Source: a virus (taxonomy: Duplodnaviria > Caudoviricetes). Taken from it: a stretch of 30,616 nucleotides of DNA. The stretch is taken from IMG/VR virus record IMGVR_UViG_3300011335_000420, positions 1-30,616 of that record. One strand, 5' to 3'. The notes beneath the pieces were generated by a model. It was not told the DNA's origin, did not search any database, and worked only from the letters and a program-made list of their open reading frames with translations. Shown here piece after piece: positions 2,822 to 26,500 of this stretch. The translations under genes and the position numbers were made by a program. How positions within the stretch are numbered: the stretch's first letter is position 1; each line of letters begins with the position of its first letter.

Positions 2822-3197
2822 TCTTACAATGTCATACAATGTAAGGGATTCTGTTGCTTTGTAAGAAACTTTTAGTTGCTTTGTAAGAATCTTACAATAC
2901 AAAATCCCTTTTAGTATCAATAACTTACGCTTATATGCCATACAATGTAAGGTTGTAAGAACTTTTTTGCAGTGACTTTGGGAAATCGAAGTCGCTCGGA
3001 CTATCTCGCAAGTCCAGAAAATAGCAAGCCTCACGTAGAGTCAATTTCTTAAATTCTCTTACATTATTACAATATACTATATCTATTAGGTAGACCAAGC
3101 TATAACCCGCATAGATACTAGGTTTCACTTTGTAAGAAAACTTTCTTACAATACCCTGCATTTTTCTTACAATCTTACAATACATTTCTTACATTAC
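2821..3197. repeat. Iteron-like repeat cluster, putative replication origin
   Basis: About a dozen CTTACA/TGTAAG copies; direct repeats GTTGCTTTGTAAGAA (2853, 2875) and CATACAATGTAAGG (2833, 2939); palindromes 2881-2897 and 3130-3151; AT-rich. Confidence 0.75.
2915..2927 (+). promoter_or_regulatory. IHF consensus site
   Basis: TATCAATAACTTA matches WATCAANNNNTTR and lies inside the repeat cluster. Confidence 0.6.
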
Positions 3198-3207
3198 GGG
3201 AGCTAAC

Positions 3208-3372
3208 ATGAAAGCATCAGATATCCTAATGCTAACCGGCACTATATTGCATCTTATGTTCTTAGGTTCGGTTATGTTCGTCAGTCTACCTTTGCTACCC
3301 ACTGCTATCTTAGTAGTGCTAGGCATTGCGTATCAGGTCTACGGTGTTCTTTTATCTTACGAAGGGAGTTAA
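3208..3372 (+). CDS. Small membrane protein (54 aa, two hydrophobic segments)
   Basis: Manual translation MKASDILMLTGTILHLMFLGSVMFVSLPLLPTAILVVLGIAYQVYGVLLSYEGS; RBS GGGAGCTAAC. Confidence 0.75.
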   Translation: MKASDILMLTGTILHLMFLGSVMFVSLPLLPTAILVVLGIAYQVYGVLLSYEGS

Positions 3373-3374
3373 TC

Positions 3375-3554
3375 ATGGGTGAACTATTACGCAAAGCATT
3401 CGATGACACCATCACCGAATCAGAGGAAGCTATGTTAGACAAGATGTTAAAAGATTGGTATGACAAGGCACATTGTATGGAGCTTGAAGATTTTGATATG
3501 TGGACTGTCGCACCTGCTAATGAACCAATGATATGTAAGACATCACTTAACTAA
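3375..3554 (+). CDS. Hypothetical protein (59 aa, acidic)
   Basis: Manual translation MGELLRKAFDD...KTSLN; RBS AAGGGAGTTAA; tight gene packing. Confidence 0.7.
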   Translation: MGELLRKAFDDTITESEEAMLDKMLKDWYDKAHCMELEDFDMWTVAPANEPMICKTSLN

Positions 3555-4744: not shown

Positions 4745-4810
4745 TAGTAGAATGTAAGACGATGTAAGAAGTACCCTAACTATAAACAACACAATAAGGA
4801 GCTAAGTATC

Positions 4811-5878
4811 ATGGCTGAAATTAATTTCGGTAAGACCGTCACACTCACACAAGCTGCAAAGATTATCGTAGCTTCCCCAAAGAATCGTTACTTACTACGT
4901 GGTGAGCCGGGCATTGGCAAGTCATCGTTGACCGCTACGCTTAAGACACTACTACCAAGACACCACGTGGCATACATGGATGTGCCGAACATGGACTTAG
5001 GCGATATCGCCATGCCCGTAGTAGACAAGGACACCAAGACCACACGCTACTATCCCAATGCAAGATTCATGTTCCACACAGGCGAGCCAGTCATCGTCAA
5101 CCTTGACGAGTTCACCAAAGGCGCAGAGCCTATCAAGAACATGCTGCATCCCCTACTCGAAGCGCACAATCCTAGACTAGGTGACGTGCCAGTACATAAC
5201 GAGTCAATCATATTCCTTACGGGTAACTTAGCTACGGACGGAGTGGGCGACAGCCTTAAAGCACACAGTCTTAACCGTATCATCCCGCTTAACATTCAGA
5301 AACCTAGCTTTGACGAGTGGGCAGATTGGGCTATGAATAACGGTATCGCACCAGAAATCTTAGCGTTCGGTCGTATGATGCCGCAGATATTCGCAAGCTA
5401 TACCGATGCAAGCCAGAAAGAAAATCCATACATCTACAACCCACTTAAACCTACGCAAGCCTATGTATCCCCTCGTTCACTCGAGCGAGCAAGTAACATC
5501 GTCAATGTAAGACAGCAGTTGGATAGCGAGAGCGTGATAGCTGCGCTGAGTGGAGCGATAGGTGAATCAGCAGCACGTGACTTCCAAGCCTACCTCGAAT
5601 ACTCCGATCAGTTACCTACGTGGGAGTCGACGATCAAAGACCCACGAGGTGCGTTAGTGCCTAAGTCAGCAGGTGCAGCAGCAATCGTTGTATTCGGTGC
5701 AATCCAGAAGGTTGACAAGACAACGATCGAACCATTCATGCAATACCTAGAACGCTTCACTGAGGAATGGCAAGCAGCGTTCGCAATCAACATCGCTAAG
5801 TCCAAGACCAAGCAACCTGTAGCGTTTAGTTGCAGAAAGTTTAGCGAGTGGGTAGCTAAGAACGAGGACTTGTTATAA
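4811..5878 (+). CDS. AAA+ ATPase (MoxR/dynein-related type)
   Basis: Walker A GEPGIGKS, Walker B VNLDEF, sensor TGN, SLNR arginine finger, SPRS. Confidence 0.9.
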   Translation: MAEINFGKTVTLTQAAKIIVASPKNRYLLRGEPGIGKSSLTATLKTLLPRHHVAYMDVPNMDLGDIAMPVVDKDTKTTRYYPNARFMFHTGEPVIVNLDEFTKGAEPIKNMLHPLLEAHNPRLGDVPVHNESIIFLTGNLATDGVGDSLKAHSLNRIIPLNIQKPSFDEWADWAMNNGIAPEILAFGRMMPQIFASYTDASQKENPYIYNPLKPTQAYVSPRSLERASNIVNVRQQLDSESVIAALSGAIGESAARDFQAYLEYSDQLPTWESTIKDPRGALVPKSAGAAAIVVFGAIQKVDKTTIEPFMQYLERFTEEWQAAFAINIAKSKTKQPVAFSCRKFSEWVAKNEDLL

Positions 5879-6113: not shown

Positions 6114-6321
6114 TGAACCAACTAGATACTTTGTAGCATGGGTGAGTGAGGACAATGCAGGTAAACCTAACATGGCATACGAGGCAGCACGGAGGGAATA
6201 TATGTACCGAGTGTTTAGGGATGATGGAGGTACTAAGTCAGAGCCTGTAACAGAAGTAATGACGTACCAAGAAGCAAAGCATAAGTTAAAAGAAATTAAC
6301 CTGTTAACCATAGGGAGCTAA
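6106..6321 (+). CDS. Hypothetical protein
   Basis: SD AGGGAG; start could be 6103 or 6106. Confidence 0.7.
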   Translation: MSNEPTRYFVAWVSEDNAGKPNMAYEAARREYMYRVFRDDGGTKSEPVTEVMTYQEAKHKLKEINLLTIGS

Positions 6322-6323
6322 GC

Positions 6324-7520
6324 ATGACAGATATAGACAAGGAAGAACGTAAGGTTAAGAAGGTCAAGATTAGTCTAATGCGTGAGCCTAAGTTTGCATT
6401 GTGGCAGGGTGCAATGATGATAGGTAAGACTAGTGTCGAGGACGATATACCAACGGCTGCAACCAACGGTCGTGACGAGTTCTATGGGCGAGAGTTCGTC
6501 AAGGACTTATCAGAGAAAGAACTGGCATTCGTGGTTCTTCATGAATGTATGCACAAAATTTATCGTCACTTAACTACGTGGAAGAAGCTCTATGACGAGG
6601 ACAAGTACCTAGCTAACTGTGCTTGTGACTTTGTTATTAACCTAGAGTTATTCGACATGGACAAGGAAGGTAAGTACATAGCTAGACCTGTTAAGAATGG
6701 TAAGCCTATAGGTTTACTTGACGAGAAGTATCGTGGCATGAATACCAAGCAAGTCTACGATCTACTTAAGCAGGAGCAAGACGAGAACGGTGGCGGGTTC
6801 GGTAATAACTTTGACGAGCATGACTGGGACGGTGCAGAGAACATGACCGATGCCGAGAAGAAAGAGTTATATAAGGAAGTCGAGCAAGCCATACGTCAAG
6901 GCGCAATGACACACCAGAAACTTAATGGTGGTGGCGCAGGTGGTATGAGTCGTGAGATGGGTGAGTTGCTTGAACCAAAAGTTAATTGGCGAGAGCAGCT
7001 ACGTGAGTATGTTAAATCAATTTGTGCAGGGAAGGACGCATCATCATGGAGACGAGTAAACCGCAGGTACATTGGGCAAGACGTATACATGCCCACGTTA
7101 ATCAGCGAACGAGTAGGACACATAGTAATCGGGATAGATACAAGTGGGTCTATCGGGGGCAAGGAATTAAACGACTTCCTTTCTGAGGTCAAGGGTGTAG
7201 CAGAGGAAGTATCACCTGAGAAGGTTGACTTACTGTACTGGGACTGTGAGGTGGCGGGACATGAAACATCCGATGCTGCAACGGTGGGTTCAATAGTTGC
7301 TTCTACTAACCCAAAGGGTGGTGGTGGCACTTCGCCTAGTTGTGTTAGCAGCTACCTTAGAGATAAAGGAATCAAGCCGGAATGCACAATCATGCTCACC
7401 GATGGGTATGTGGGTTCGGATTGGGGTAGCGATTGGGAATCACCGGTACTCTGGGTTGTCGTGGGTGGTAACACTGCCACTGCACCTAACGGTAAAACTA
7501 TTCACATCAAAGGAGATTAA
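6324..7520 (+). CDS. DUF2201-type metallopeptidase plus vWA domain protein
   Basis: PTAATNG, HECMH (HExxH), N.ACD..IN, W+R.NRR, MIDAS DTSGS, GGGT, LTDG. Confidence 0.9.
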   Translation: MTDIDKEERKVKKVKISLMREPKFALWQGAMMIGKTSVEDDIPTAATNGRDEFYGREFVKDLSEKELAFVVLHECMHKIYRHLTTWKKLYDEDKYLANCACDFVINLELFDMDKEGKYIARPVKNGKPIGLLDEKYRGMNTKQVYDLLKQEQDENGGGFGNNFDEHDWDGAENMTDAEKKELYKEVEQAIRQGAMTHQKLNGGGAGGMSREMGELLEPKVNWREQLREYVKSICAGKDASSWRRVNRRYIGQDVYMPTLISERVGHIVIGIDTSGSIGGKELNDFLSEVKGVAEEVSPEKVDLLYWDCEVAGHETSDAATVGSIVASTNPKGGGGTSPSCVSSYLRDKGIKPECTIMLTDGYVGSDWGSDWESPVLWVVVGGNTATAPNGKTIHIKGD

Positions 7521-7770: not shown

Positions 7771-7793
7771 TTAAACACAACAAGGAGCTAATC

Positions 7794-8651
7794 ATGGGTA
7801 TATCATCAAGCGCAGTATTGGTAGAGTTAAACGTATCTAACTGGGGTGCAAGCAAGTTAGACCGTAACGTAGCAGATACAGTGAATGCAAATCACAACGC
7901 AGCACATGACGCAAGCAAGGTCTATAAGAATCTAACAGCAGGTTCAACACTATGCTCAGACATCGGCAAGTACGCAGCTAAGATTCGCCTGTACCACAAC
8001 GAAGTAACAATGCCGTGGGCATCCAAAGGGGCAAGGCTTCTACCTACTAGCTTAGTCTTAGAGTACAAGCAGCAGATCAACAACATGAAGATTACATACG
8101 AGACGATGTGTAATAACTTCTTTACTCAGTATCCAACAATAGTAGCTAATGCACAGACACACTTAGGTGCATTGTTCAAGGCTGATGACTATCCAACGCT
8201 TGACGAGGTTAAGCAGAAGTTCGGTTTCAAGTTAGTGTTCTCACCGTTACCCGAAGCAGGTGACTGGAGATTAGATGTAGGTAACGAGGACTTGCGTGAG
8301 TTAGCCGCAAGCTACGAAGCTGACTTCAATGATCGATTAGCTGAAGCAGTACGTGCCCCGTGGGATAAGTTACATAAAGAATTAACAGCACTATCCGCTA
8401 AGTTGAAAGACGATGCTACTGACCCTGACAAGAAGAAACGATACCACGATAGCTTGCTTGAGAATCCTCAAGAGTTGTGTCGCCTACTTACTCACTTGAA
8501 TGTAACCAATGACCCTAAGTTAGAGGAAGCAAGACGTGACCTTGAACGTGCCCTAGTAGGTGTAGATATCGAGGACATCAAAGAGTACGAGACTGCACGT
8601 AGCGATGTGAAGAAACGTGTCGATGCAATCTTAGATAAGTTCGATTGGTAA
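7794..8651 (+). CDS. DUF3150-like protein (usual partner of the phage AAA/vWA module)
   Basis: 285 aa; T.PW...GARLLP and DYP....+..KF.F motifs; helical C-terminus; gene context. Confidence 0.6.
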   Translation: MGISSSAVLVELNVSNWGASKLDRNVADTVNANHNAAHDASKVYKNLTAGSTLCSDIGKYAAKIRLYHNEVTMPWASKGARLLPTSLVLEYKQQINNMKITYETMCNNFFTQYPTIVANAQTHLGALFKADDYPTLDEVKQKFGFKLVFSPLPEAGDWRLDVGNEDLRELAASYEADFNDRLAEAVRAPWDKLHKELTALSAKLKDDATDPDKKKRYHDSLLENPQELCRLLTHLNVTNDPKLEEARRDLERALVGVDIEDIKEYETARSDVKKRVDAILDKFDW

Positions 8652-9051: not shown

Positions 9052-9933
9052 ATGACCTATAGAAACAGTGGAATACAACGCTTGCGTGATTATAAGCAAG
9101 CAATGGAATGGTATGAAGCAACACCACCTATCAAAGGTACAGGTAGGAACGGAGGGCTAAAGCCTTTAGGACATCGTAACCGTACACACTTTCAAATACT
9201 CAAGGGTACAGATAACGAGATCAAGTGCAGACTATATGACACCGATGTTGTTACGTTCTACCCTGATGACACAATCAAGATTATCAATGATAAATATACA
9301 ACACAAACAACAGCTAACTTTATAGAAGATGTGTTAGGTATATTCGCAGCAGTACAAGATCATGACATCGTAGTAGGCATACATGGTATGCGTTATCGCT
9401 TAGGTGATGGTGTGGTAATGAAGCGTGACGAGCAAGGCATACTGCGGGTACTTAAGGTTGACAAAGCATACGTACACATTATTAACCGCAAGGTTATGGC
9501 TAAGCTACGCAACAACGTCAAAGACTTCATGCAGTATCTTAACGGTAGCATCAAGATCAGAGACAACGGTAGGTTTAATGAGGAAGAGAAGGAAGCATTG
9601 TTAGAACATCTTGGCATGGATGACTATGGCTTTGGTCTTGCTTGTATACCCACATGGCGCACTGAAACAGAAGAGCTACGTAAAAGATTGGGTACGTTCT
9701 TTGATATGGTCAAGAGTGGGGACATGGAGAACTGGTATAGGGCTTCTTGTTGGATGGCTTTCTCGCAATACACGTGGGTTAAAGCAATTAGCCTAACACC
9801 AAAACAAGCTAAGATTATTATGGATAACTTCATACTTGCAGTATACCCAGAAGCACTAACTAAAATAGAAGTACCAGAAGGTACGGTTAAACGTGATCGT
9901 TATAGACAAGTAGCGTTAATGAGTGGAGCTTAA
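9052..9933 (+). CDS. Hypothetical protein (293 aa)
   Basis: RBS AGGGAGAATAA; long ORF. Confidence 0.85.
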   Translation: MTYRNSGIQRLRDYKQAMEWYEATPPIKGTGRNGGLKPLGHRNRTHFQILKGTDNEIKCRLYDTDVVTFYPDDTIKIINDKYTTQTTANFIEDVLGIFAAVQDHDIVVGIHGMRYRLGDGVVMKRDEQGILRVLKVDKAYVHIINRKVMAKLRNNVKDFMQYLNGSIKIRDNGRFNEEEKEALLEHLGMDDYGFGLACIPTWRTETEELRKRLGTFFDMVKSGDMENWYRASCWMAFSQYTWVKAISLTPKQAKIIMDNFILAVYPEALTKIEVPEGTVKRDRYRQVALMSGA

Positions 9934-9934
9934 C

Positions 9935-10795
9935 ATGGCATATAGATACCCAAATGTAATATCAAATACAAAGTACACATCGTACGGCGAAACAAAAGAC
10001 ATAGATGTACACGAGGACATAGTACCATTCATAGATGCCCTAGCCGTGAAGTATCCGCAGTGGGAGTTTGTCACTGATGGAGTTAGATACACGGGTAAAG
10101 AAAATGAGATAGTAAAGTCAATTAGGTTTAAAGTATATAACGATGCTAACCCACGTGAGCAAGTAGGTGAGATTAAAGGCGACTATAAGTATAACAATGA
10201 TGGTAATAGAGTGCCGTCATATATAGTGTACAACCAGAGACTAGCGCATGATAGGGAGCGTGGTCATTATCTTGAGACTACTAAGTTACCTGTAGCTATG
10301 AAAGCTGTACATAAATACTTCAACCCTCCACCCGTTACAGCCCTGCTTGAACAAGTAATGACAAGAGGTGTAGGTCAGTTCAATCACTTGGTGGCACACA
10401 AGGAAAGGTTAGCAAGGAACACTGAGTACCAATTGCAAGTATCTAAGGAAGAGTTTATCAAGGCTAACTGGGACAAGTACTTAGGTAGTCTAGCTGATAC
10501 GTTACTAAATGTAGCCCACAAGTACAAAGAAGAGTTCGATGAATACCTGCGCCTGTTCAATGTACAAAGAAATAATTATGCTCTTGCAGTTGTCATACAG
10601 AATGATAAATATGTGGTATCCTGTAACGACAAGATAACTACCTACGATGTAAACACTATCCCGATTGATCTAAGAGCGCAGTTAGGTCTGCTCAAATTGA
10701 TAGAGGAAGGTGAGGTGTTAGAGGATGTAGGTGTACGTACTAAAGATGGTTTCCTAGTATTTTTACCTAAGGATAAGAAAGATGAAGTGTCCTAA
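9935..10795 (+). CDS. Hypothetical protein (286 aa)
   Basis: Start reassigned to ATG 9935 after GGAGCTTAAC. Confidence 0.85.
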   Translation: MAYRYPNVISNTKYTSYGETKDIDVHEDIVPFIDALAVKYPQWEFVTDGVRYTGKENEIVKSIRFKVYNDANPREQVGEIKGDYKYNNDGNRVPSYIVYNQRLAHDRERGHYLETTKLPVAMKAVHKYFNPPPVTALLEQVMTRGVGQFNHLVAHKERLARNTEYQLQVSKEEFIKANWDKYLGSLADTLLNVAHKYKEEFDEYLRLFNVQRNNYALAVVIQNDKYVVSCNDKITTYDVNTIPIDLRAQLGLLKLIEEGEVLEDVGVRTKDGFLVFLPKDKKDEVS

Positions 10796-11102
10796 GTGTG
10801 GCGATGAGCATACTAAAGTAACGCAGACTGAGAAGCGTGGCACGGGGGTGTGGCGCAGACGCAAGTGCGTGGAGTGTAGTCATAACTTCCAATCATTTGA
10901 GGATTTGTATACCCCCAAACAGCGTACACAGAAAGCACCTGTACTACCTAAGATGCACAGTGATAAGAAGCAACCCGCAATGCCCAAGAAGGACAAAGAT
11001 CTAATCAAGAAGATTAAGACTGAGATTAGACATAAGCACGAAGATAGAAGAAGTAAAGTAGCAGACTATTACATCGAAGATGATTACGATGATATTTACT
11101 AA
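10782..11102 (+). CDS. NrdR-like N-terminal zinc-ribbon protein lacking ATP-cone
   Basis: MKCPKCG...TKV......RRRKCVEC...F.SFE matches the NrdR Zn-ribbon pattern; basic then acidic tail. Confidence 0.75.
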   Translation: MKCPKCGDEHTKVTQTEKRGTGVWRRRKCVECSHNFQSFEDLYTPKQRTQKAPVLPKMHSDKKQPAMPKKDKDLIKKIKTEIRHKHEDRRSKVADYYIEDDYDDIY

Positions 11103-11116
11103 CCAAAGGAGCTAAT

Positions 11117-11401
11117 ATGTTAATTGAACAACAGCAGGTCTATCTACAATCCGTAGCTAAGCATGGGGTAGATGAGATTGATAAGGTAACTAGAATGTTA
11201 CAGCGCATGAGTCCAGAGTTATTCTTAAACGAGTCTAAGGCTGTTATGAAAGAGCGTAAGTTCTTTGACCAACCTGCGTCACTTAAAGCAGGTGATGACT
11301 ATGCTAGCCACGAGGTAGACATGGTTGATGGACACGAGCGTTACGCTATACATGAAGCACGTAGTATCAAAATCTTACGTAGAGGGATGGGATACAAATG
11401 A
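11117..11401 (+). CDS. Hypothetical protein
   Basis: RBS AAAGGAGCTAA. Confidence 0.8.
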   Translation: MLIEQQQVYLQSVAKHGVDEIDKVTRMLQRMSPELFLNESKAVMKERKFFDQPASLKAGDDYASHEVDMVDGHERYAIHEARSIKILRRGMGYK

Positions 11402-12833: not shown

Positions 12834-13022
12834 ATGTCAACCGTAGTAACAAGGCAGTCTAAAAAGATACGTATGAAGTCTATGACTATCCGAGTACCAG
12901 AACATATCATCGAACACTTTAGAGACAACTATTCTAACGGTAGTAAGAAGGTACGAGAAGTATTAGAAGCCTTTATACAATCACAAGGAGCTAAGAGTGA
13001 GAAAGCAAAAGCCAAAACATGA
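12834..13022 (+). CDS. Ribbon-helix-helix DNA-binding protein
   Basis: MTIRVPEHIIEHFR....GSKKVREVLEAFI resembles BrnA/Arc-type RHH; SD AGGAG. Confidence 0.65.
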   Translation: MSTVVTRQSKKIRMKSMTIRVPEHIIEHFRDNYSNGSKKVREVLEAFIQSQGAKSEKAKAKT

Positions 13023-13217: not shown

Positions 13218-13514
13218 ATGGCTATGACACCCGAAGCAAAAGTAAAAGCGCAAGTAGTTAAGCTACTAAGAAGATACGACGCATACTATTTTTTCCCCGC
13301 AGCAAATGGCTACGGACGTGCGGGTATACCTGACATCATCTCTTGTGTTAACGGTAAGTTCATAGCTATAGAGTGCAAGGCAGGGAGCAATACAACCACA
13401 GCACTACAGAAAAAAGAGCTTGATGAGATTCAAGAAGCTAAAGGTATAGCCGCAGTGATTAACGAAACCAACATAGACCTAATAGAGCAGATACTAAAGG
13501 AGCTTACACAATGA
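13218..13514 (+). CDS. VRR-NUC nuclease (Holliday junction resolvase-like)
   Basis: TPEAKVK, GIPDII, IECKAG, TALQ. Confidence 0.9.
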   Translation: MAMTPEAKVKAQVVKLLRRYDAYYFFPAANGYGRAGIPDIISCVNGKFIAIECKAGSNTTTALQKKELDEIQEAKGIAAVINETNIDLIEQILKELTQ

Positions 13515-18865: not shown

Positions 18866-19045
18866 CAAGAAGCCTGAGGGTTAGGATGTTGTATTTGTTT
18901 ACGGCATAGCAAAAGCGATGGGAATCCTTTCCCTAGCCCTCAGACTTGTTTGACTAGCCCAGCCGGAGGTGGCGCATATAACACCGGCAGTGGGAGCTAA
19001 GCACCTTCCTTTCGGTCTTTGGCTTTGCCCGTTTAGTGATCCCAC
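18866..19045 (+). ncRNA. Structured leader RNA (three stem domains)
   Basis: 18874-18885 pairs with 18932-18943 (inner 18886-18907); 18962-18988 hairpin; 18990-19045 hairpin. Confidence 0.6.
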
Positions 19046-19067
19046 ACTTACAATAAAAGGAGCTAAT

Positions 19068-19466
19068 ATGGAAGATGAAATACCCGCAGATAGATTAGTG
19101 AAAGCGTATATAAAAATACGTGATGCTAAGTCAGAATTAGTAAAGCAGCACGAAGCAGAGTTGGCTAAGTTAGAAGAGCAAATGGATGTACTGTCTAAGA
19201 AGATGCTAGATATTTGCAAAGATAATGGAGCTGATTCAATCAAGACTAATGCAGGTACTATTATGCGTAGTGTGTCCACAAGATACATGACCAATGACTG
19301 GGATAGCCTGTATAAGTTTATTAAGGAACATGATGCAATTGGGTTACTCGCAAAGTTTATCCATCAAGGCAACATGAAGCAGTTCATCGAAGAAAACCCC
19401 GATGTGTTCCCACCCGGCATGTTAGTTGACAGCCAATATAAAATCGTTGTGAGGAGAAGTAAATGA
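19068..19466 (+). CDS. Conserved phage replication-region protein (132 aa)
   Basis: Start reassigned after AAAAGGAGCTAA; LVKAYIKIRD coiled coil, SIKT.AGT, DWDSLY.FI. Confidence 0.85.
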   Translation: MEDEIPADRLVKAYIKIRDAKSELVKQHEAELAKLEEQMDVLSKKMLDICKDNGADSIKTNAGTIMRSVSTRYMTNDWDSLYKFIKEHDAIGLLAKFIHQGNMKQFIEENPDVFPPGMLVDSQYKIVVRRSK

Positions 19467-20391: not shown

Positions 20392-20413
20392 GGGGGGCTT
20401 GCCCCCCTTTTTT
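20392..20413 (+). terminator. Rho-independent terminator
   Basis: GGGGGG-CTTG-CCCCCC-TTTTTT. Confidence 0.85.
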
Positions 20414-20427
20414 ACCTCTATAAAAAC

Positions 20428-23289
20428 ATGGCTAACTTTGACCTATTAGATACAGTACTTGCTACCGAAGGGTGGTACGCTGTTGTGGGTATTAAGGAAA
20501 AGTCAGTACTACAAGAATTAGTTCAAACTCGTGAAGAAGTAGACGCATTAGTAGCTAAGTTTCTAGCAGCAGAACGTAACGTATATTTTGGATGTGCCAA
20601 GTACGAGACAGGCGAGAACCGTAAGAAAGAAAATGCTAAGTACTTCAAAGCGTTCTGGATGGACATTGATTGTGGTGCGGACAAAGCAGTACCAGACCCC
20701 ACGACTGGAAAAGTAGACGGCTATATAGACCAAGCTACAGGCTTAGCTGAGCTACAAAGATTTTGCAAAACTATAGGATTACCAAGACCAACATTGGTTA
20801 ACTCAGGACGTGGTATACACGCATACTGGGTGTTGGACGAAGCAATATCAAGAGAAGAATGGGAGCCTGTATCTAATCGAATACACGCACTCTGCGATAT
20901 ACATGACCTGTTAGCAGACCCATCGTGCTTTGAGGCTGCGCGTATCCTGCGTATACCTAACACGTTAAACTTTAAAGATTCACCCCCCTCGAATGTCGAG
21001 GCTATTTCTTTAGGTAAGACCACAAGTCTTGCCCAAATGCGCGAGTTACTAGGTGTGGTGGATGAGCCTAAAAAGCTTTTCACCCCTCGCCCATTACGCC
21101 AACGTAGTGCTTTGACCATGTCCCTTATGGGTAACCGTGTGTCGAAGTTTAAGACAATCATGATTAAGTCAGCACAAGGTCAGGGTTGTCAGCAGTTAGT
21201 GCATTGCTATCAGAACCAAGATTCCATTAGCTATAATCTATGGCGCTCGGCTATGTCGATAGCGGCTTTCTGTGAAGAAGGTGTTAACGCAGCACACAAG
21301 ATGTCTGAGAACTATCCGGGCTATAACCCTGAGGAAGTGGAGACTAAAGTCCATGACCTACAGCGTAACGGTGGTCCTCATTTCTGTGAGACTTTTGAGA
21401 AGGAAAACCCCGGTGGCTGTGATGGCTGCATACACAAGGGCAAGATCAAGACACCTATAGTATTAGGCAAAGAGATTGCACGTGATGAACCAACGGAAGA
21501 AGGTTATGTAGTTGAGGTGGAAGCGGAGGAAGAGGAAGAAGTTGAGGAGTATGTAATCCCTACGTATCCATTCCCATTCTACAGAGGTAAGGCAGGTGGT
21601 ATATACAAGCAAGCTAAGGATGACGATGCTGAAGATGATCTAGTCTATGAGCATGATTTGTATGTAGTTAAGCGTATGAAAGACCCAGAGCTGGGTGAAG
21701 TTGCTTTGATGCGCCTACACTTGCCACGTGACGGTGTTGCTGAGTTTACTGCACCACTTGACCACATCATAGCTAAGGATGACTTACGTAAAATCTTGGC
21801 TAAACGTGGTGTAGCAGGATACCCAAAACAAATGGAACTACTAGCACAGTTTGTACTGGCTAGCATAAAAGAACTACAGCTTGAACGAAAGGCGGAGCTT
21901 ATGAGAACACAGTTTGGATGGGCTGATAATGATAGTAAATTTATTATTGGTGACCGTGAAATAACAGCAGAAGGTATATATTACAGTCCACCTTCATCGC
22001 AGACTACGGCTATAGCACACTACATGACACAAGTTGGTACGCTAGAAGCTTGGAAAGAATGCTTTAACATGTATAATCGACCCGGACTAGAACCAAACGC
22101 GTTTGCTGCGCTGACAGGATTCGGCTCTCCGTTGTTGAAGTTTACAGGGCTGAGTGGCGCTATTGTTAACGTGATCTTCAAGAAATCAGGCTCAGGTAAA
22201 TCTACTACCTTAGCAATGTGTAACAGCATTTATGGGCATCCTAGCAGGTTGATGGCTATGCCTAGGGATACAATGAATGCACGTATGCAGAAGCTAGGTG
22301 TGATGAATAACCTGCCTTTCACGATGGACGAAGTCACTAACATGAAGTCAGACGAGTTCTCGGATTTAGCCTACGCTATGTCCCAAGGAAGAGGTAAGGA
22401 TCGTCAGAAATCGTCCGCCAACGAGCTGCGCCTTAACCTCACTTCTTGGCAAAACTTATCCCTCTCCAGTGCTAATGCCAGCTTCTATGAGAAGTTAGGT
22501 TCCTTAAAGGCTACACCTGACGGTGAGCGTATGCGTTTCATCGAGTACGAGATTGGCTACAGCGATGCTATATCTACCGAAGAAGGTAAGCGTGTATTTG
22601 ACCATGAACTGTTACAAAACTATGGACATGCAGGTGACATCTATGCACAATGGTTAGTAGCTAACAGAGAAGAAGCTATTCGTAACCTCCTTGAAGTACA
22701 AGCTAAGATTGACAAAGAGTTACGTCTTACCCAGCGTGAGCGTTTCTGGTCAGCAGTCGTAGCGTGTAATATTACAGGTGGCTTGATTGCTAAGTCGTTA
22801 GGTTTAATTAACTACGACATGAAAGCAATTTATAAGTGGGCTACTACGATGGTACGTGATGTTCGTGAGGATACTGTTGCTCCAGTTGATGATGCTTCTA
22901 ACATCGTTGGTGACTACATGAACCGCCACTTGCGTAATATCCTAATCGTTAACGGTGAGACAGATGCTAGGACTAAGTTAGCCCCTGCACCACTGCAAGA
23001 ACCATATGGTGAATTAGTTATACGGTATGAGCCAGATACTAAGAAGATGTTTATTGTATCCAAGCACTTTAGAGATGACTGCGTAGAACGTCAGGTTAAC
23101 TACAAGGACACACTAAAGCAGCTTACAGCTCGTGGGGTATATCAGGGAAGCACTACACGTCGCATGACTACAGGCACTAAGATTAAAGGACCGCCTGTTC
23201 ATGTAATGCAGTTTAACTGTGACACCCCAGACTTCATTAGCGTGGATGATTACTTAGATGCGAGTACAGGGAATACCGTATCAGATTAA
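20428..23289 (+). CDS. Primase-helicase: AEP/RepB-type primase, Cys-rich domain, DUF927 helicase
   Basis: WMDIDCG, NSGRGIHAYW, RILRIP; C..F..ENP..C..C.H; QFGW, SGSGKST Walker A, TMDE Walker B, QGRGK.R, NYGHAG. Confidence 0.9.
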   Translation: MANFDLLDTVLATEGWYAVVGIKEKSVLQELVQTREEVDALVAKFLAAERNVYFGCAKYETGENRKKENAKYFKAFWMDIDCGADKAVPDPTTGKVDGYIDQATGLAELQRFCKTIGLPRPTLVNSGRGIHAYWVLDEAISREEWEPVSNRIHALCDIHDLLADPSCFEAARILRIPNTLNFKDSPPSNVEAISLGKTTSLAQMRELLGVVDEPKKLFTPRPLRQRSALTMSLMGNRVSKFKTIMIKSAQGQGCQQLVHCYQNQDSISYNLWRSAMSIAAFCEEGVNAAHKMSENYPGYNPEEVETKVHDLQRNGGPHFCETFEKENPGGCDGCIHKGKIKTPIVLGKEIARDEPTEEGYVVEVEAEEEEEVEEYVIPTYPFPFYRGKAGGIYKQAKDDDAEDDLVYEHDLYVVKRMKDPELGEVALMRLHLPRDGVAEFTAPLDHIIAKDDLRKILAKRGVAGYPKQMELLAQFVLASIKELQLERKAELMRTQFGWADNDSKFIIGDREITAEGIYYSPPSSQTTAIAHYMTQVGTLEAWKECFNMYNRPGLEPNAFAALTGFGSPLLKFTGLSGAIVNVIFKKSGSGKSTTLAMCNSIYGHPSRLMAMPRDTMNARMQKLGVMNNLPFTMDEVTNMKSDEFSDLAYAMSQGRGKDRQKSSANELRLNLTSWQNLSLSSANASFYEKLGSLKATPDGERMRFIEYEIGYSDAISTEEGKRVFDHELLQNYGHAGDIYAQWLVANREEAIRNLLEVQAKIDKELRLTQRERFWSAVVACNITGGLIAKSLGLINYDMKAIYKWATTMVRDVREDTVAPVDDASNIVGDYMNRHLRNILIVNGETDARTKLAPAPLQEPYGELVIRYEPDTKKMFIVSKHFRDDCVERQVNYKDTLKQLTARGVYQGSTTRRMTTGTKIKGPPVHVMQFNCDTPDFISVDDYLDASTGNTVSD

Positions 23290-23452
23290 CTGGAAATCAT
23301 TCAAGCCGGGGACTTCGTTCTTTATCCCTTGCTTGGATACCAAAGCCGCTGAGGAAGAAATAAACTTTGTCGTTGCTCGACTACAAATGAACGTGGTTAT
23401 CAAAGTTGTAATCGAGGGTGGTGTGCAAGGTATGCGCGTTTGGCGAGTTTAG
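23258..23452 (+). CDS. Small conserved protein after the primase-helicase
   Basis: W..F..G.SFFIPCL...G+RVWR motif. Confidence 0.75.
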   Translation: MRVQGIPYQINWKSFKPGTSFFIPCLDTKAAEEEINFVVARLQMNVVIKVVIEGGVQGMRVWRV

Positions 23453-23460
23453 GCTATACT
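23432..23460 (+). promoter_or_regulatory. Candidate promoter for the small RNA
   Basis: TATACT at 23455-23460; weak -35 ATGCGC 17 nt upstream. Confidence 0.45.
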
Positions 23461-23466
23461 ATTTCT

Positions 23467-23547
23467 CAACGGCTTTTAGTTAGCTCCTTTTAGTCGTTTA
23501 TTCTCCTTCACAGAGAACTTCGCCCCCGGTTCGTCCGGGGGTTTTTT
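23467..23547 (+). ncRNA. Predicted anti-RBS small RNA
   Basis: Stem 23468-23474/23492-23498 with loop TTTAGTTAGCTCCTTTT; second element TTATTCTCCTT (23498-23508); then terminator. Both elements are complementary to recurrent phage RBSs. Confidence 0.7.
23522..23547 (+). terminator. Rho-independent terminator at the convergence of replication and late genes
   Basis: GCCCCCGG-TTCGT-CCGGGGGT followed by TTTTT. Confidence 0.9.
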
Positions 23548-26500
23548 ATTTAGACTCTTCTATTTCTTTTGCTAAGTTTCTCTCACTCTTATCTTGCAGT
23601 TTCAGTAAGTTTGCAATCTTCATCTCCATAGTAACGCCACTATTGTTAGTCATAATCAACTTCATACGACGATCAAAAGAACGTTCTATATCTGAAAACT
23701 CAATGGTTAACTCAGGGTTAGGATACATACTGTTAAACCTAACTGCTTTGTCTATCATCTTATCAAACCTATCTTGCCTATCTAACGTAGCAGACCGTTC
23801 AATTTGTTTAAGAATGTCAGATCGCATATTGTCTATCTTCATTTTTTCATTATTAATCAGGAACACATCTTTCTGACGTTCAGCCAAAGCTTTAGTTTTA
23901 TACCCAAGCAATGCTTGCATCAACAGTTGACTATCGGTAAAGTCTTTGGCTTCTTTTATAACTTGCAAGGCTCCGTTACGTTCCCCTTCTTCTTTTTGTC
24001 GCAAGCTAGTAAAGATACCTTTGAACATTGATGGCATACCTTTTTCCAAAGATCTAAGGTAATCACCGTTCTTAGTAGCAGCCTCTGCAGCACTCGCCCA
24101 TGTTTCTGCAAGACCTACTACGGCACCACCAATATTTGCTAGAGTATCTGCAACAGCATGCTTCCAATCACTAGACGTAGTCTCGTCCGCAAACCAGAAG
24201 TCCATAGACATACCTGATGCCATATCGTAGCCGGTTAAATTATCTAAAGTACCGTTAGCTATCCATTCACTTAGAGGTATACCATTAATCTCAGGCTCCC
24301 CAAAAGTTTCTGGCAGCCACACATTCTCAAAATACTTTTTAAAGTTTAATTCCCACAGCGGTACTTCATCATCGTCATCGTTTAAATAACGAATCAAATT
24401 AAGTAAACCTTGTATAGCACCCATGACTACGCTATACATAAACGCTCTGCGTACACCACCAATTAAAACTGAAGTACCAAGAGTCCCCGCAAATGCTTTA
24501 AACGCACCCCACCGTTCTTCCTTAGGTAACTTACTTACCATCTCCCCAAAGTTACGGCATAAAAACTCTATATTAAATACTTGGAATTTATAGTACTGCC
24601 CTGCTATTCGTGCAGGTATACTGCGCATTAATGTAGGAGTATTAGCTGGATCGTAGTTAAACAATGCTTCTTTAGTTACTTCTAAAGCCATAGCAATAGA
24701 CTTGTTAACTCGCACGTCATGGTTAGGCTCACTAGCAAACTTCTTCATAGCTAGGTTAAACGCAGACATATACATAATCTCACGTGATAACCGTTCACCT
24801 AAATGAAATGGCAATGTAATCGTATTTATAGCTGCAGTTGACAACTTACTGATTGCACCATAATTTTCTCTAGCTGTTTTACCACGACCTGTTAAGTCCA
24901 TAGTACGAGTAGCATCCGCTTGACCGCTTTCAGCAAAAGCTCTGAATGCTTTTATAGTGTCAGGGTTACTAAGTACTAATGACGACGAGCCAATAGAAGG
25001 AGCTGTATATATTACGTTACCCTTTGCGTCGTAGTTAGTAATACCAACCTGCCTATACCCATCTTTTGCAAACCGCAACATCTCCACAGTAGTACTACCC
25101 ACACCAAAATACTTCCACATAGTTGGCATACCATGAGTAATAATGCTAGACATCTGGTTAACTGCAGACTTAATTGCAGTCATCTGCCATAAGAAAGCAC
25201 TCTTAGTAGCAAACCGAGCCGCCTTCTCCCATCCATTATCAGACTCTGGTGGGTTAAGTTCTTCTTCAGCACGTTTCGCAATATGTCTAATGATCTGCTC
25301 TAGTCGTAATTTGTTGGGGTGCGCACGCACAGAATCCCTTGCCGCACTAATACCATTGCGTATCGTCGGACCATACTTAAGGTTAGACAACTGATTTGCA
25401 AAGCGGTTACCCATCACGATAAAGTCACGCATAGCATCTTTATTGAAACCAGCTATTTCTTCACGTGGTAAGAACTGTTTGCGGAACGTACCCTCTGGCA
25501 TAGCCAGCAAGTGCATAGAGAAGATATCTTTCTTTATGGATTCCTTAGTAGCTGCATCTGCTGCTGTCATGCCATCAACCATAGTAAATAACTTCTTCAT
25601 TATTTCACTAGAATCTTTAGCTTCTTCATCCATAAGCTCTTGCAGGTTATCACCATAGTTTATAAAACCATCGTCCAGCATCTTCTCTTTGGTTCTGGTA
25701 TCGCCTAGCTTACGCTGCTCTTTAATAAACTCATCTATATAGTCCTCACGTATTGTTGCGCTGTCGTCCATAATAAATATGCGACTATCGCCTGTACCCA
25801 AACGTGCCCAGTGGTCACCATAACGCATCAATGGGAAGAACGGGGCTAACTTAGCACCTGTCTCATACATCTTTTTTATCTCATCCATAAGCATCTGCTT
25901 GGATGTATTGCTTAGGTTTGCATTATTAATACGCTGGTTAAGTAACGCACGATATAAGTTGTAGTTGTTTATGTAGAAATCACGAACGTCCGCATACAAC
26001 GTCTTAGCTTTAGGAGACAGTAATTTCCACGTAGCGTCTAAGCTTGTATTCCCTGTCGGTCCAAGTGATGGATCCTTTTGAGACATTGTAGATATATGCA
26101 TAACAGAAGACAAACGCTCTGCATCACGTGTTTTTAACTTGCTCCAGTTACGGGCTAAGGTATCAACTATACGAAGAGTACGGTTTCTAAACTGATTCTT
26201 TTCATCTATGCCGTTCTTAATGTCATTAATTGCGTTAACCCCTACACCTAGTTCTTTGGCAATACGGTACAAGCGATCCGTAGGAGAAGCATTAAGCATT
26301 ATGTCTAACTTGTTTAGCGGTAGCTTTTCAAAGTTAGCTTTTATGTAGGTAATCCAGAGGCTAGGATCACGAGCCACAGCAAGCAACGACCCCAAAGCTT
26401 TACGTCTTTCGTCTGGAGTTTTAGTCGCAAAGTACCTCTCCTTAGCTTCTCTTACTGTTAGTATCCTTTTCTTTGCGTACTTAATAAGATTTTCTTTTTC

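Follow-up and report, generated by a model that had tools for sequence, protein, structure and literature searches.

What is encoded in the short gap that follows the primase operon of an uncultured phage, and why does a CU-rich loop within it mirror the ribosome-binding sites (RBSs) of the phage's own early genes? The window, by which we mean the whole stretch of 30,616 nucleotides that was analysed, is an IMG/VR-type virus record (30.6 kb, about 49% complete) from a group of uncultured aquatic phages. Our preferred reading, to which we assign a probability of roughly 0.7, is that the gap is the cassette of a predicted trans-acting small RNA (sRNA), of 55-90 nt across the family, whose seed would pair with the extended RBSs of the phage's own early genes and likely block 30S loading. 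Such a block is likely because the open, CU-rich seed both complements these RBSs and co-varies with them.

The + strand of the window carries the early/replication arm, including genes for an AAA ATPase, a DUF2201 metallopeptidase-vWA protein, a DUF3310 protein, a Hjc/VRR-type nuclease, DNA polymerase, exonuclease, helicase, a 132-aa protein (g132), a 300-aa protein, a DUF927 primase and a 64-aa protein (g64), and a 2322-aa DarB-like gene converges on it from the right of the window. A complete relative of 66 kb (G001), near-identical to the window, has terminase, portal, capsid and tail genes in the opposite arm. No integrase was found among 88 proteins of G001 and G003, 30 window proteins and 14 further proteins; because the scanned proteins are a subset, we call these phages only probably lytic. 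The portal shares about 43% identity with its counterparts in the pelagiphages HTVC023P/027P and several other phages, and phages with related portals infect many phyla. The sole good GTDB match is a 16.7-kb contig in a Nanopelagicales MAG, which was not taken as host evidence.

Within the 93-nt gap 3' of the primase operon lie a promoter of sigma-70 type, a hairpin whose loop is CU-rich, and an intrinsic terminator. These elements are arranged as follows:

23258..23452, + strand: g64, the 64-aa gene; overlaps the primase end, and the -35 box of the RNA gene falls within its final codons
23432..23437, + strand: -35 position, ATGCGC, degenerate, with a 17-nt spacer (TTGCGN with an 18-nt spacer in most relatives)
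23455..23460, + strand: -10 box, TATACT (TAnnnT directly after the g64 stop in relatives)
23467..23548, + strand: predicted sRNA of about 81 nt, its 5' end assumed 7 nt past the -10 box
23468..23498, + strand: hairpin 1, a 7-bp stem (23468-23474/23492-23498) with one G-U pair and a 17-nt loop (23475-23491)
23479..23492, + strand: seed 1, in the loop; complement of AAGGAGCTAA-type extended RBSs
23498..23511, + strand: seed 2, the second element; complement of GGAGAA-type RBSs (9052, 19463, 12501)
23522..23548, + strand: intrinsic terminator, hairpin (23522-23542) and U-tract

The -10 box, stem with its G-U pair, loop, second element (23498-23508) and terminator all lie where the preliminary description had placed them. 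The loop reads UUUAGUUAGCUCCUUUU. In the predicted fold, seed 1 has a mean unpaired probability of 0.8, and seed 2 is partly held in a weak 5-bp stem. Terminator included, the gap folds with z = -3.2, and none of 200 shuffles was equally stable. There is no ATG or GTG on the + strand between 23461 and 23548, i.e. the RNA is non-coding, and the stop codon of the convergent DarB-like gene sits at the terminator end. Logan contigs of three runs on record as RNA contain pieces of primase and g64 and not the RNA gene; contigs of at least 151 nt cannot show an RNA of 80 nt. The earlier statement that the RNA has no named family agrees with Rfam, in which no model reached its gathering score in the window. 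The best E-value matches were anti-hemB, PsrR1 and SuhB, with 9 matches at E<=10 in 23300-23700; SuhB/MmgR (RF00519) scored 16.8 of 41 bits and anti-hemB (RF02837) 24.5 of 49.5 bits, both below the gathering threshold, the latter aligned mostly on the terminator.

Is this arrangement kept in other phages? Relatives of g64 were drawn from viral contigs, metagenomes and GTDB, taking the best 80 of 177, 182 and 141 in three fetches. Of the resulting 176 loci, window included, 134 have the cassette, meaning that the g64 stop is directly followed by a -10 box and this in turn by a CU-rich body with a terminator; some contigs occur in two of the collections. Another 36 loci have g64 without a cassette call, and 6 are truncated. 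The 67 distinct RNA bodies form 30 clusters at 68% identity, and most members carry one or two CUCCU/UUCCU motifs. Among the first 51 distinct RNAs, lengths range from 53 to 92 nt and 43 have a TTGCGN-N18-TAnnnT promoter. By eye, the cassette is absent from the convergent-arm gap of the cultured phages with primase or g132 matches, namely Pseudomonas Rollin, Rhizobium RHph_TM3_14A, Xanthomonas Xp15 and Acinetobacter Effie, and a g64 homolog used as query matched nothing under E 0.2 in the phage collection.

The -35 box coincides with a Leu-Arg codon pair in the g64 motif GLRVWR. In the 26 clusters with Leu-Arg, the leucine codon is TTG in 20, TTA in 5 and CTG in 1, compared with a usage of 17.6% TTG and 26% TTA in the long upstream ORF. 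The window itself has a Met-Arg pair at this place and thus a weaker box than its relatives. Furthermore, 22 of the 30 clusters have a hairpin starting no more than 3 nt from the predicted +1, against 7.9 expected after shuffling. These features bear on the unlikely alternative that the element is only the 3' end of the primase-g64 mRNA, whole or processed, which would pair with the same RBSs and would not be a separate primary transcript. Between the primase start and the cassette terminator there is only a weak terminator-like site (20987, within the gene), so an operon mRNA would end at the cassette terminator, and the degenerate -35 of the window points the same way. Neither point accounts for the fixed place of the -10 box, a -35 box kept across clusters through codon choice, or a hairpin at the predicted +1.

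The g64 protein itself is kept in all related phages examined. It has neither a Pfam nor a PHROG match, and its predicted small alpha/beta fold bears a weak likeness to several RNA-binding domains. A role as RNA chaperone was considered and set aside, as there is no clear fold match (best Foldseek E 0.09; best VIA Z 5.5, rmsd 3.1, 63 aligned).

Strand is the next issue. The preliminary description had placed the RNA on the + strand, in keeping with the conserved + strand promoter and with a better fold for the + strand in 53 of 71 distinct RNAs. A different and very improbable view is that the gap is merely a terminator, the match arising from host 16S-tail bias or from the minus-strand RBS of a tiny ORF. 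Consistent with the latter, 10 of the 30 clusters have a minus-strand ATG or GTG at RBS distance; only these do, however, no such start exists in the window, the ORFs elsewhere are mutually unrelated, and no minus-strand ORF is conserved across clusters.

The RNA fold remains a prediction. In all 19 clusters with a match of at least 8 nt, the matched stretch is more unpaired than the remaining RNA in predicted folds. Changes in the stem of hairpin 1 occur in 5-6 sequences, one of them two-sided and several one-sided, and, taken over the window's clade, the stem shows no significant covariation (93/500 shuffles). A MAFFT alignment of 29 RNAs did not align the 5' hairpins by structure.

Several loci depart from the standard layout. 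In one clade (L061, L076 at 9169-9330, L077 and L078) the cassette in the gap after g64 looks inverted: on the minus strand, a promoter-like TTTACA-N17-TATAAT comes with roughly 120 nt of C-rich, structured sequence and with a terminator. The cassette that follows g64 in L293 is divergent: it contains a ATCCCGTATC-like repeat three times over and does not match the g132 RBS of that locus. Five marine- or brackish-looking loci (L174, L182, L190, L204 and L220) have short CU-rich stretches after g64 and no full promoter-terminator cassette, which might possibly be remnants of a decayed RNA gene.

Which genes, then, would the RNA reach in the window? The sequence AAGGAGCTAA has five + strand copies (4796, 7782, 11106, 12985 and 19057), each just 5' of a start, as had been claimed for all five, and its single - strand copy is the RNA loop itself. 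The predicted target sites, together with g132, are:

3198..3210, + strand: RBS of the 54-aa gene; from net energy
3361..3377, + strand: RBS of the 59-aa gene, with G-U pairs; from net energy
4796..4813, + strand: RBS of the AAA ATPase gene; AAGGAGCTAA copy and net energy
6312..6326, + strand: RBS of the DUF2201 metallopeptidase-vWA gene; from net energy
7782..7796, + strand: RBS of the 285-aa gene; AAGGAGCTAA copy and net energy
11105..11119, + strand: RBS of the 94-aa gene; from net energy
12985..12999, + strand: RBS of the DUF3310 gene; from net energy
13496..13513, + strand: RBS of the 143-aa gene, a moderate target; from net energy
19054..19070, + strand: RBS and start of g132, the predicted family-wide target; 13-nt match and covariation
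19068-19466, + strand: g132, 132 aa, Gam/Gp157-like
19447..19465, + strand: RBS of the 300-aa gene after g132, a possible seed-2 target; duplex -24.9, net -4.4 with opening costs

The 285-aa gene (start 7794) belongs to no identified family; it has neither a Pfam nor a PHROG match, and its earlier label 'DUF3150-like' is dropped. The 300-aa gene is called SSB-like by its place only, no family match naming it. The g132 site is real, with a length of 13 nt from 19054 (14 with a G-U pair) in place of the 12 nt from 19055 given before. Likewise, the described variants are present at 3198, 3364, 6313, 13496, 9040, 7510, 11731 and 12487, and only a 6-nt match exists at 9925.

Complementarity exceeds what the anti-SD cores alone would give. 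Matches of at least 8 nt occur at 11 of 37 + strand starts (shuffle mean 4.2, p = 0.011) and of at least 9 nt at 8 of 37 (shuffle mean 1.5, p = 0.007), as judged against 3000 shuffles of the RNA that left both CTCCTT cores in place; in this comparison with shuffled controls, which had been suggested, the number of matched starts was thus reached in about 1% of shuffles. Net energies, including the opening costs on both molecules, were computed for 32 hand-set starts of the window. Eight starts (11117, 3208, 4811, 7794, 19068, 12997, 6324 and 3375) reach -8.4 to -12.0 kcal/mol, all via the loop, and start 13511 reaches -6.4 kcal/mol. Pairing through the second element at 9052, 12501 and 19463 gives -4.4 to -5.6 kcal/mol, and starts 11744 and 7522 pair weakly, through the loop. 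No useful pairing by net energy is seen for 9925/9938 or for the polymerase, exonuclease and helicase, and an 8-nt site within the primase start has a net energy of -6.2 kcal/mol. Judged by these net energies at hand-set starts, the list of about 14 targets in the preliminary description shrinks to about 8-9 well-supported ones, and, of the replication genes, the polymerase, helicase and exonuclease have no usable site.

The same motif could in principle be a double-stranded DNA site for a phage protein, working in either orientation and with no RNA pairing. We regard this as very unlikely. A G-U asymmetry test was null, as this view would have it: G-U-compatible mismatches at the first position beside the core are not enriched (10 vs 14 of 63). 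Against it, the five exact + strand copies all lie at RBS position while the only - strand copy is in the loop, matches reach 18 nt and run over start codons, and the motif is single-stranded in predicted RNA folds.

If the RNA acts on RBSs, seed and target should change together. In a first scan of 27 contigs from 12 lineages, every RNA was compared with the start regions of 48 gene families. The best of these is g132, for which the own RNA pairs at -20.5 kcal/mol and others at -13.7 kcal/mol, with 0 of 20000 permutations as good. It is followed by the Hjc/VRR-type resolvase gene (p = 0.0006, 7 lineages), one late gene (p = 0.0043), the AAA gene (p = 0.0075, 6 lineages, which fails 48-fold correction) and the 300-aa gene (p = 0.018). 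Only g132 and the resolvase gene pass 48-fold correction, and the remaining 43 families are null. The simple gene caller used here set wrong starts for the window polymerase, primase and resolvase gene, which makes nulls for these genes weak.

The g132 result holds in a larger set. Over 24 RNA clusters, the own RNA pairs with the g132 RBS at -19.8 kcal/mol and other RNAs at -13.3 kcal/mol, and the longest exact match is 9.2 nt for own and 5.8 nt for others (p<=1e-5); these permutation p-values overstate independence because the clusters are related. By energy, the own RNA ranks first or second of 24 in 16 clusters and seventh or worse in 6. This test used 10-kb flanks, with the VRR and AAA genes lying outside. 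Matched g132 seed states are AAAAGGAGCTAA (window), AACAAGGAAA, AAGGAAAAACTT, AGGAAAACGAA, GGAGAGTGA, ACCAAGAGG, AAAGGAAAAGT and AAGGAAAAGC. On a FastTree phylogeny of g132, the 300-aa protein and primase, from which six rows without a cassette were pruned before pairing, own pairing of g132 beats swapped pairing in 10 of 12 non-overlapping pairs; each of the other two pairs joins sisters whose seeds are identical. The covariation with RBS extensions that the preliminary description had suggested looking for is therefore found at g132. In contrast, the 300-aa gene co-varies by permutation but splits 5 vs 5 in tree pairs.

Loci were also fetched via g132 instead of g64, and 31 of 65 reach the cassette place. 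They add new states, AAGGAGCAAACT and a seed that covers both SD and start codon, GTAGCATGG. Among ten chosen representatives, the own RNA is in the top 5 of 34 in 6 and 10th in 2; in L301 and L293 it is 16th and 26th, and neither shows a g132 match.

What is the product of this constant target? The g132 protein matches Pfam DUF7307 at 28.1 bits (cut-off 27), with weaker matches to Mu Gam/Gp157. Its model has a pLDDT of 84 and resembles, among viral models, Siphovirus Gp157 (E 4e-4) and a host-nuclease inhibitor (E 3e-3), for which reason g132 is probably a DNA end-protection or recombination factor; no solved relative was found by sequence or Foldseek. In most clades g132 has a near-consensus promoter, TTGACA-N16/17-TAGTAT, which looks stronger than that of the RNA. 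An apparent promoter in the window ending at 19054, just 5' of the g132 RBS, was discarded because it is not conserved and the promoter of the relatives lies further upstream. Upstream of g132 in L006, L011, L052, L202 and others, the -35 TTGACA forms half of a near-palindrome, TTGACnnnGTCAA/GTAAA, a pattern found in many clades that suggests a repressor site over the g132 promoter.

How far the regulon extends beyond g132 was assessed by counting, in each genome, the starts with an exact match of at least 8 nt to the own RNA in the early and in the late arm. In the window's clade the tag keeps to the early arm: G001 has 13 of 39 early vs 1 of 51 late, and the held-out G035 9 of 48 vs 0 of 34, including an 18-nt perfect match that ends at the AAA start. 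G006 has 11 of 38 vs 2 of 38, and G004 4 of 32 vs 0 of 47. The difference is smaller in G003 (7 of 38 vs 3 of 48) and G005 (3 of 20 vs 1 of 44), with p about 0.08, and there is no asymmetry in G002, G007, G008, G033, G034, G036 and G037. RNAs of other lineages have 1-3 early matches on average, and an arm test based on duplex energy is significant in only 1 of 8 genomes. The broad regulon is thus a trait of the GGAGCT clade and g132 the constant target; the wider claim of a broad regulon for the whole family is not borne out, e.g. in G002, G007, G008, G033 and G036.

In G001, GGAGCT itself is part of 9 of the 39 early RBSs and of none of the 51 late ones, even though GGAG is used by 14 late RBSs. 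Host 16S-tail bias would touch late genes as well and is therefore ruled out, which leaves the terminator-only view, together with its unrelated minus-strand ORFs, largely refuted. The arm counts also speak to the quite improbable idea that the RNA mainly attacks mRNAs of the host or of co-infecting phages, as a generic anti-Shine-Dalgarno weapon, with own-gene matches as a by-product. The CUCCU/UUCCU motifs of most members would indeed pair with many RBSs, and the tag is common to related phages: early genes of G002 match the window RNA 4-5 times. A weapon of this kind would not explain, however, why the seed has changed state many times in step with the g132 RBS of its own phage, nor why the late genes of the window's clade avoid the tag.

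Taken as an sRNA gene, the cassette suggests the following course of events. Small RNAs that cover the SD block translation initiation. Here, host RNA polymerase would make a short, terminator-protected RNA whose open seed could pair over SD and spacer, and in some clades over the AUG, so that initiation would be blocked. Specificity would come from bases beside the SD core, CTAA in the window and AAAACTT, AAACGAA, AGTGA, CAAACT or ACCAAG elsewhere, which the late genes of the window's clade lack. The presumed target in the whole family is g132; others would vary by clade, with the Hjc/VRR-type resolvase gene in several clades and some 8-9 early genes, AAA and vWA among them, in that of the window. 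Strong early promoters would allow a first burst of early expression. Because its promoter looks like a suboptimal host sigma-70 promoter, the RNA is expected to build up with time and template number, and as genome copies increase it may damp g132 and the tagged genes later in infection, without affecting late genes that lack the tag or the core replication enzymes, which would continue. Transcription, pairing in the cell, repression and timing, the early-to-late switch of the preliminary description included, are what we infer from the comparisons, and steady fine-tuning may apply just as well as damping in later infection.

Pairing could also have the opposite sign, stabilising or activating early mRNAs, or could merely fine-tune levels with no shut-off. 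We consider this highly unlikely. The long structured leader of g132 in the window's clade may fold onto its own RBS, as activation would call for; yet the SD is covered by the pairing, which in several clades also takes in the start codon, and SD occlusion represses in SviR/gp120 (bioRxiv 10.1101/2022.04.08.487710).

Comparison with known systems helps to place the RNA. One close likeness is SviR of the Vibrio cholerae phage satellite PLE, a trans-acting sRNA with two seed regions that lowers protein by RBS occlusion and targets the helper phage as well as operons of its own element (bioRxiv 10.1101/2022.04.08.487710). Both are sRNAs of viral elements with RBS occlusion in trans (here predicted) and regulation of own-element genes. 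Unlike the satellite, the present phage looks autonomous, and its seed and own RBSs co-vary; in the parts of the SviR preprint cited here, no shared private RBS tag is described.

The C4 RNA acts in lysogeny control via the icd-ant operon. It is an antisense RNA of phages P1/P7 (Rfam RF01695; PMC2864571), which regulates a gene of the phage by pairing with its transcript (PMC8201110), and to this extent the predicted control here is alike. It differs in its several unlinked targets, in a seed that is the complement of SD plus flank, and in the lack of an integrase in the proteins scanned. The neighbours are primase, g64 and the convergent DarB-like gene and not the immI-type operon before icd/ant, and the C4 model was neither at its gathering score in the window nor among the 9 matches at E<=10 in 23300-23700.

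The Cia-dependent csRNAs of Streptococcus are short and carry anti-SD and often anti-AUG sequences in an unpaired region between stem-loops (PMC3091779). The present RNAs likewise leave the anti-SD unpaired (19 of 19 clusters), with an anti-AUG in some clades only and not in the window, a likeness in working alone; csRNAs are chromosomal and CiaR-controlled, targets here are phage-internal, and no csRNA model of Rfam matched the window RNA. The cuckoo/CcsR RNAs of Alphaproteobacteria keep the anti-SD CCUCCUCCC fixed in 2-4 hairpin loops while stems vary (PMC4615179). They share with the present RNA an anti-SD motif in a hairpin loop, but here the seed itself varies with the target between clusters, the window loop differs, and there is no Rfam match. 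In T4, RegB cleaves early RBSs at GGAG but leaves late mRNAs intact, and RegA blocks about 30 initiation regions (PMC3014915); these are functional analogues but proteins, whereas the predicted agent here is a base-pairing RNA.

The RNA is thus a member of none of the csRNA, cuckoo, SviR and C4 families. It has several features of a trans-encoded base-pairing sRNA: a promoter of its own and an intrinsic terminator in an intergenic gap (by sequence and conservation), no coding capacity, and an accessible, co-varying seed. Among the phage sRNAs VpdS, PreS, 24B_1, Sar, OOP, aQ and DicF, as covered in the cited part of PMC12197685, none is of the anti-RBS covarying kind, and a literature search, with subscription journals mostly outside it, found no phage RNA that co-varies with the RBSs of its own genes. 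Six short motifs had no match in three supplement files of PMC10690425, and the RNA may be among the unnamed candidates of that study. In sum, the cassette is a real, conserved and uncatalogued gene for a predicted small RNA, with strong comparative evidence for RBS targeting of the phage's own genes, and is best read as belonging to an uncatalogued family of trans-acting anti-RBS sRNAs of probably lytic phages.

According to a 2024 review, what non-coding RNAs do in lytic phages has yet to be established (PMC10884466). The 81-nt predicted RNA with named targets provides a concrete testable case, and the seed-RBS pairs that occur ready-matched in nature, in over 20 clusters, can serve as compensatory mutants. 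It also illustrates that bases flanking the SD core can make an anti-SD RNA selective, and seed-RBS covariation offers a computational route to phage RNA targets without an isolate. More speculatively, and at somewhat less than an even chance, early genes may carry a private RBS barcode beside the SD core, read by one sRNA that switches the set off as infection proceeds. This would be an RNA counterpart of RegB/RegA, re-keyed many times, with a regulon that grows or shrinks by point changes in RBSs.

Four further observations concern the window. Between helicase and g132, the window has a structured leader of about 190 nt (18870-19060), found only in its clade (also L002, L003, L004, L162 and L010, and in part L164), with compensatory stem changes between relatives and an extra GGAGCTAA copy (18993) inside a predicted stem; it has no Rfam match at E<=5 and is possibly a cis-regulatory RNA or a second non-coding RNA. 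A strong terminator-like hairpin (20392-20415) lies immediately 5' of the primase start, which has no SD. At 10782-11102 a 106-aa protein with an NrdR-like zinc-ribbon domain is encoded, a candidate transcription regulator. Finally, the gene-poor region 2830-3200 and sites near 1584, 1612, 18835 and 19047 contain many CTTACA(A)/TTGTAAG repeats, some at putative promoters, which form a candidate origin or operator array.
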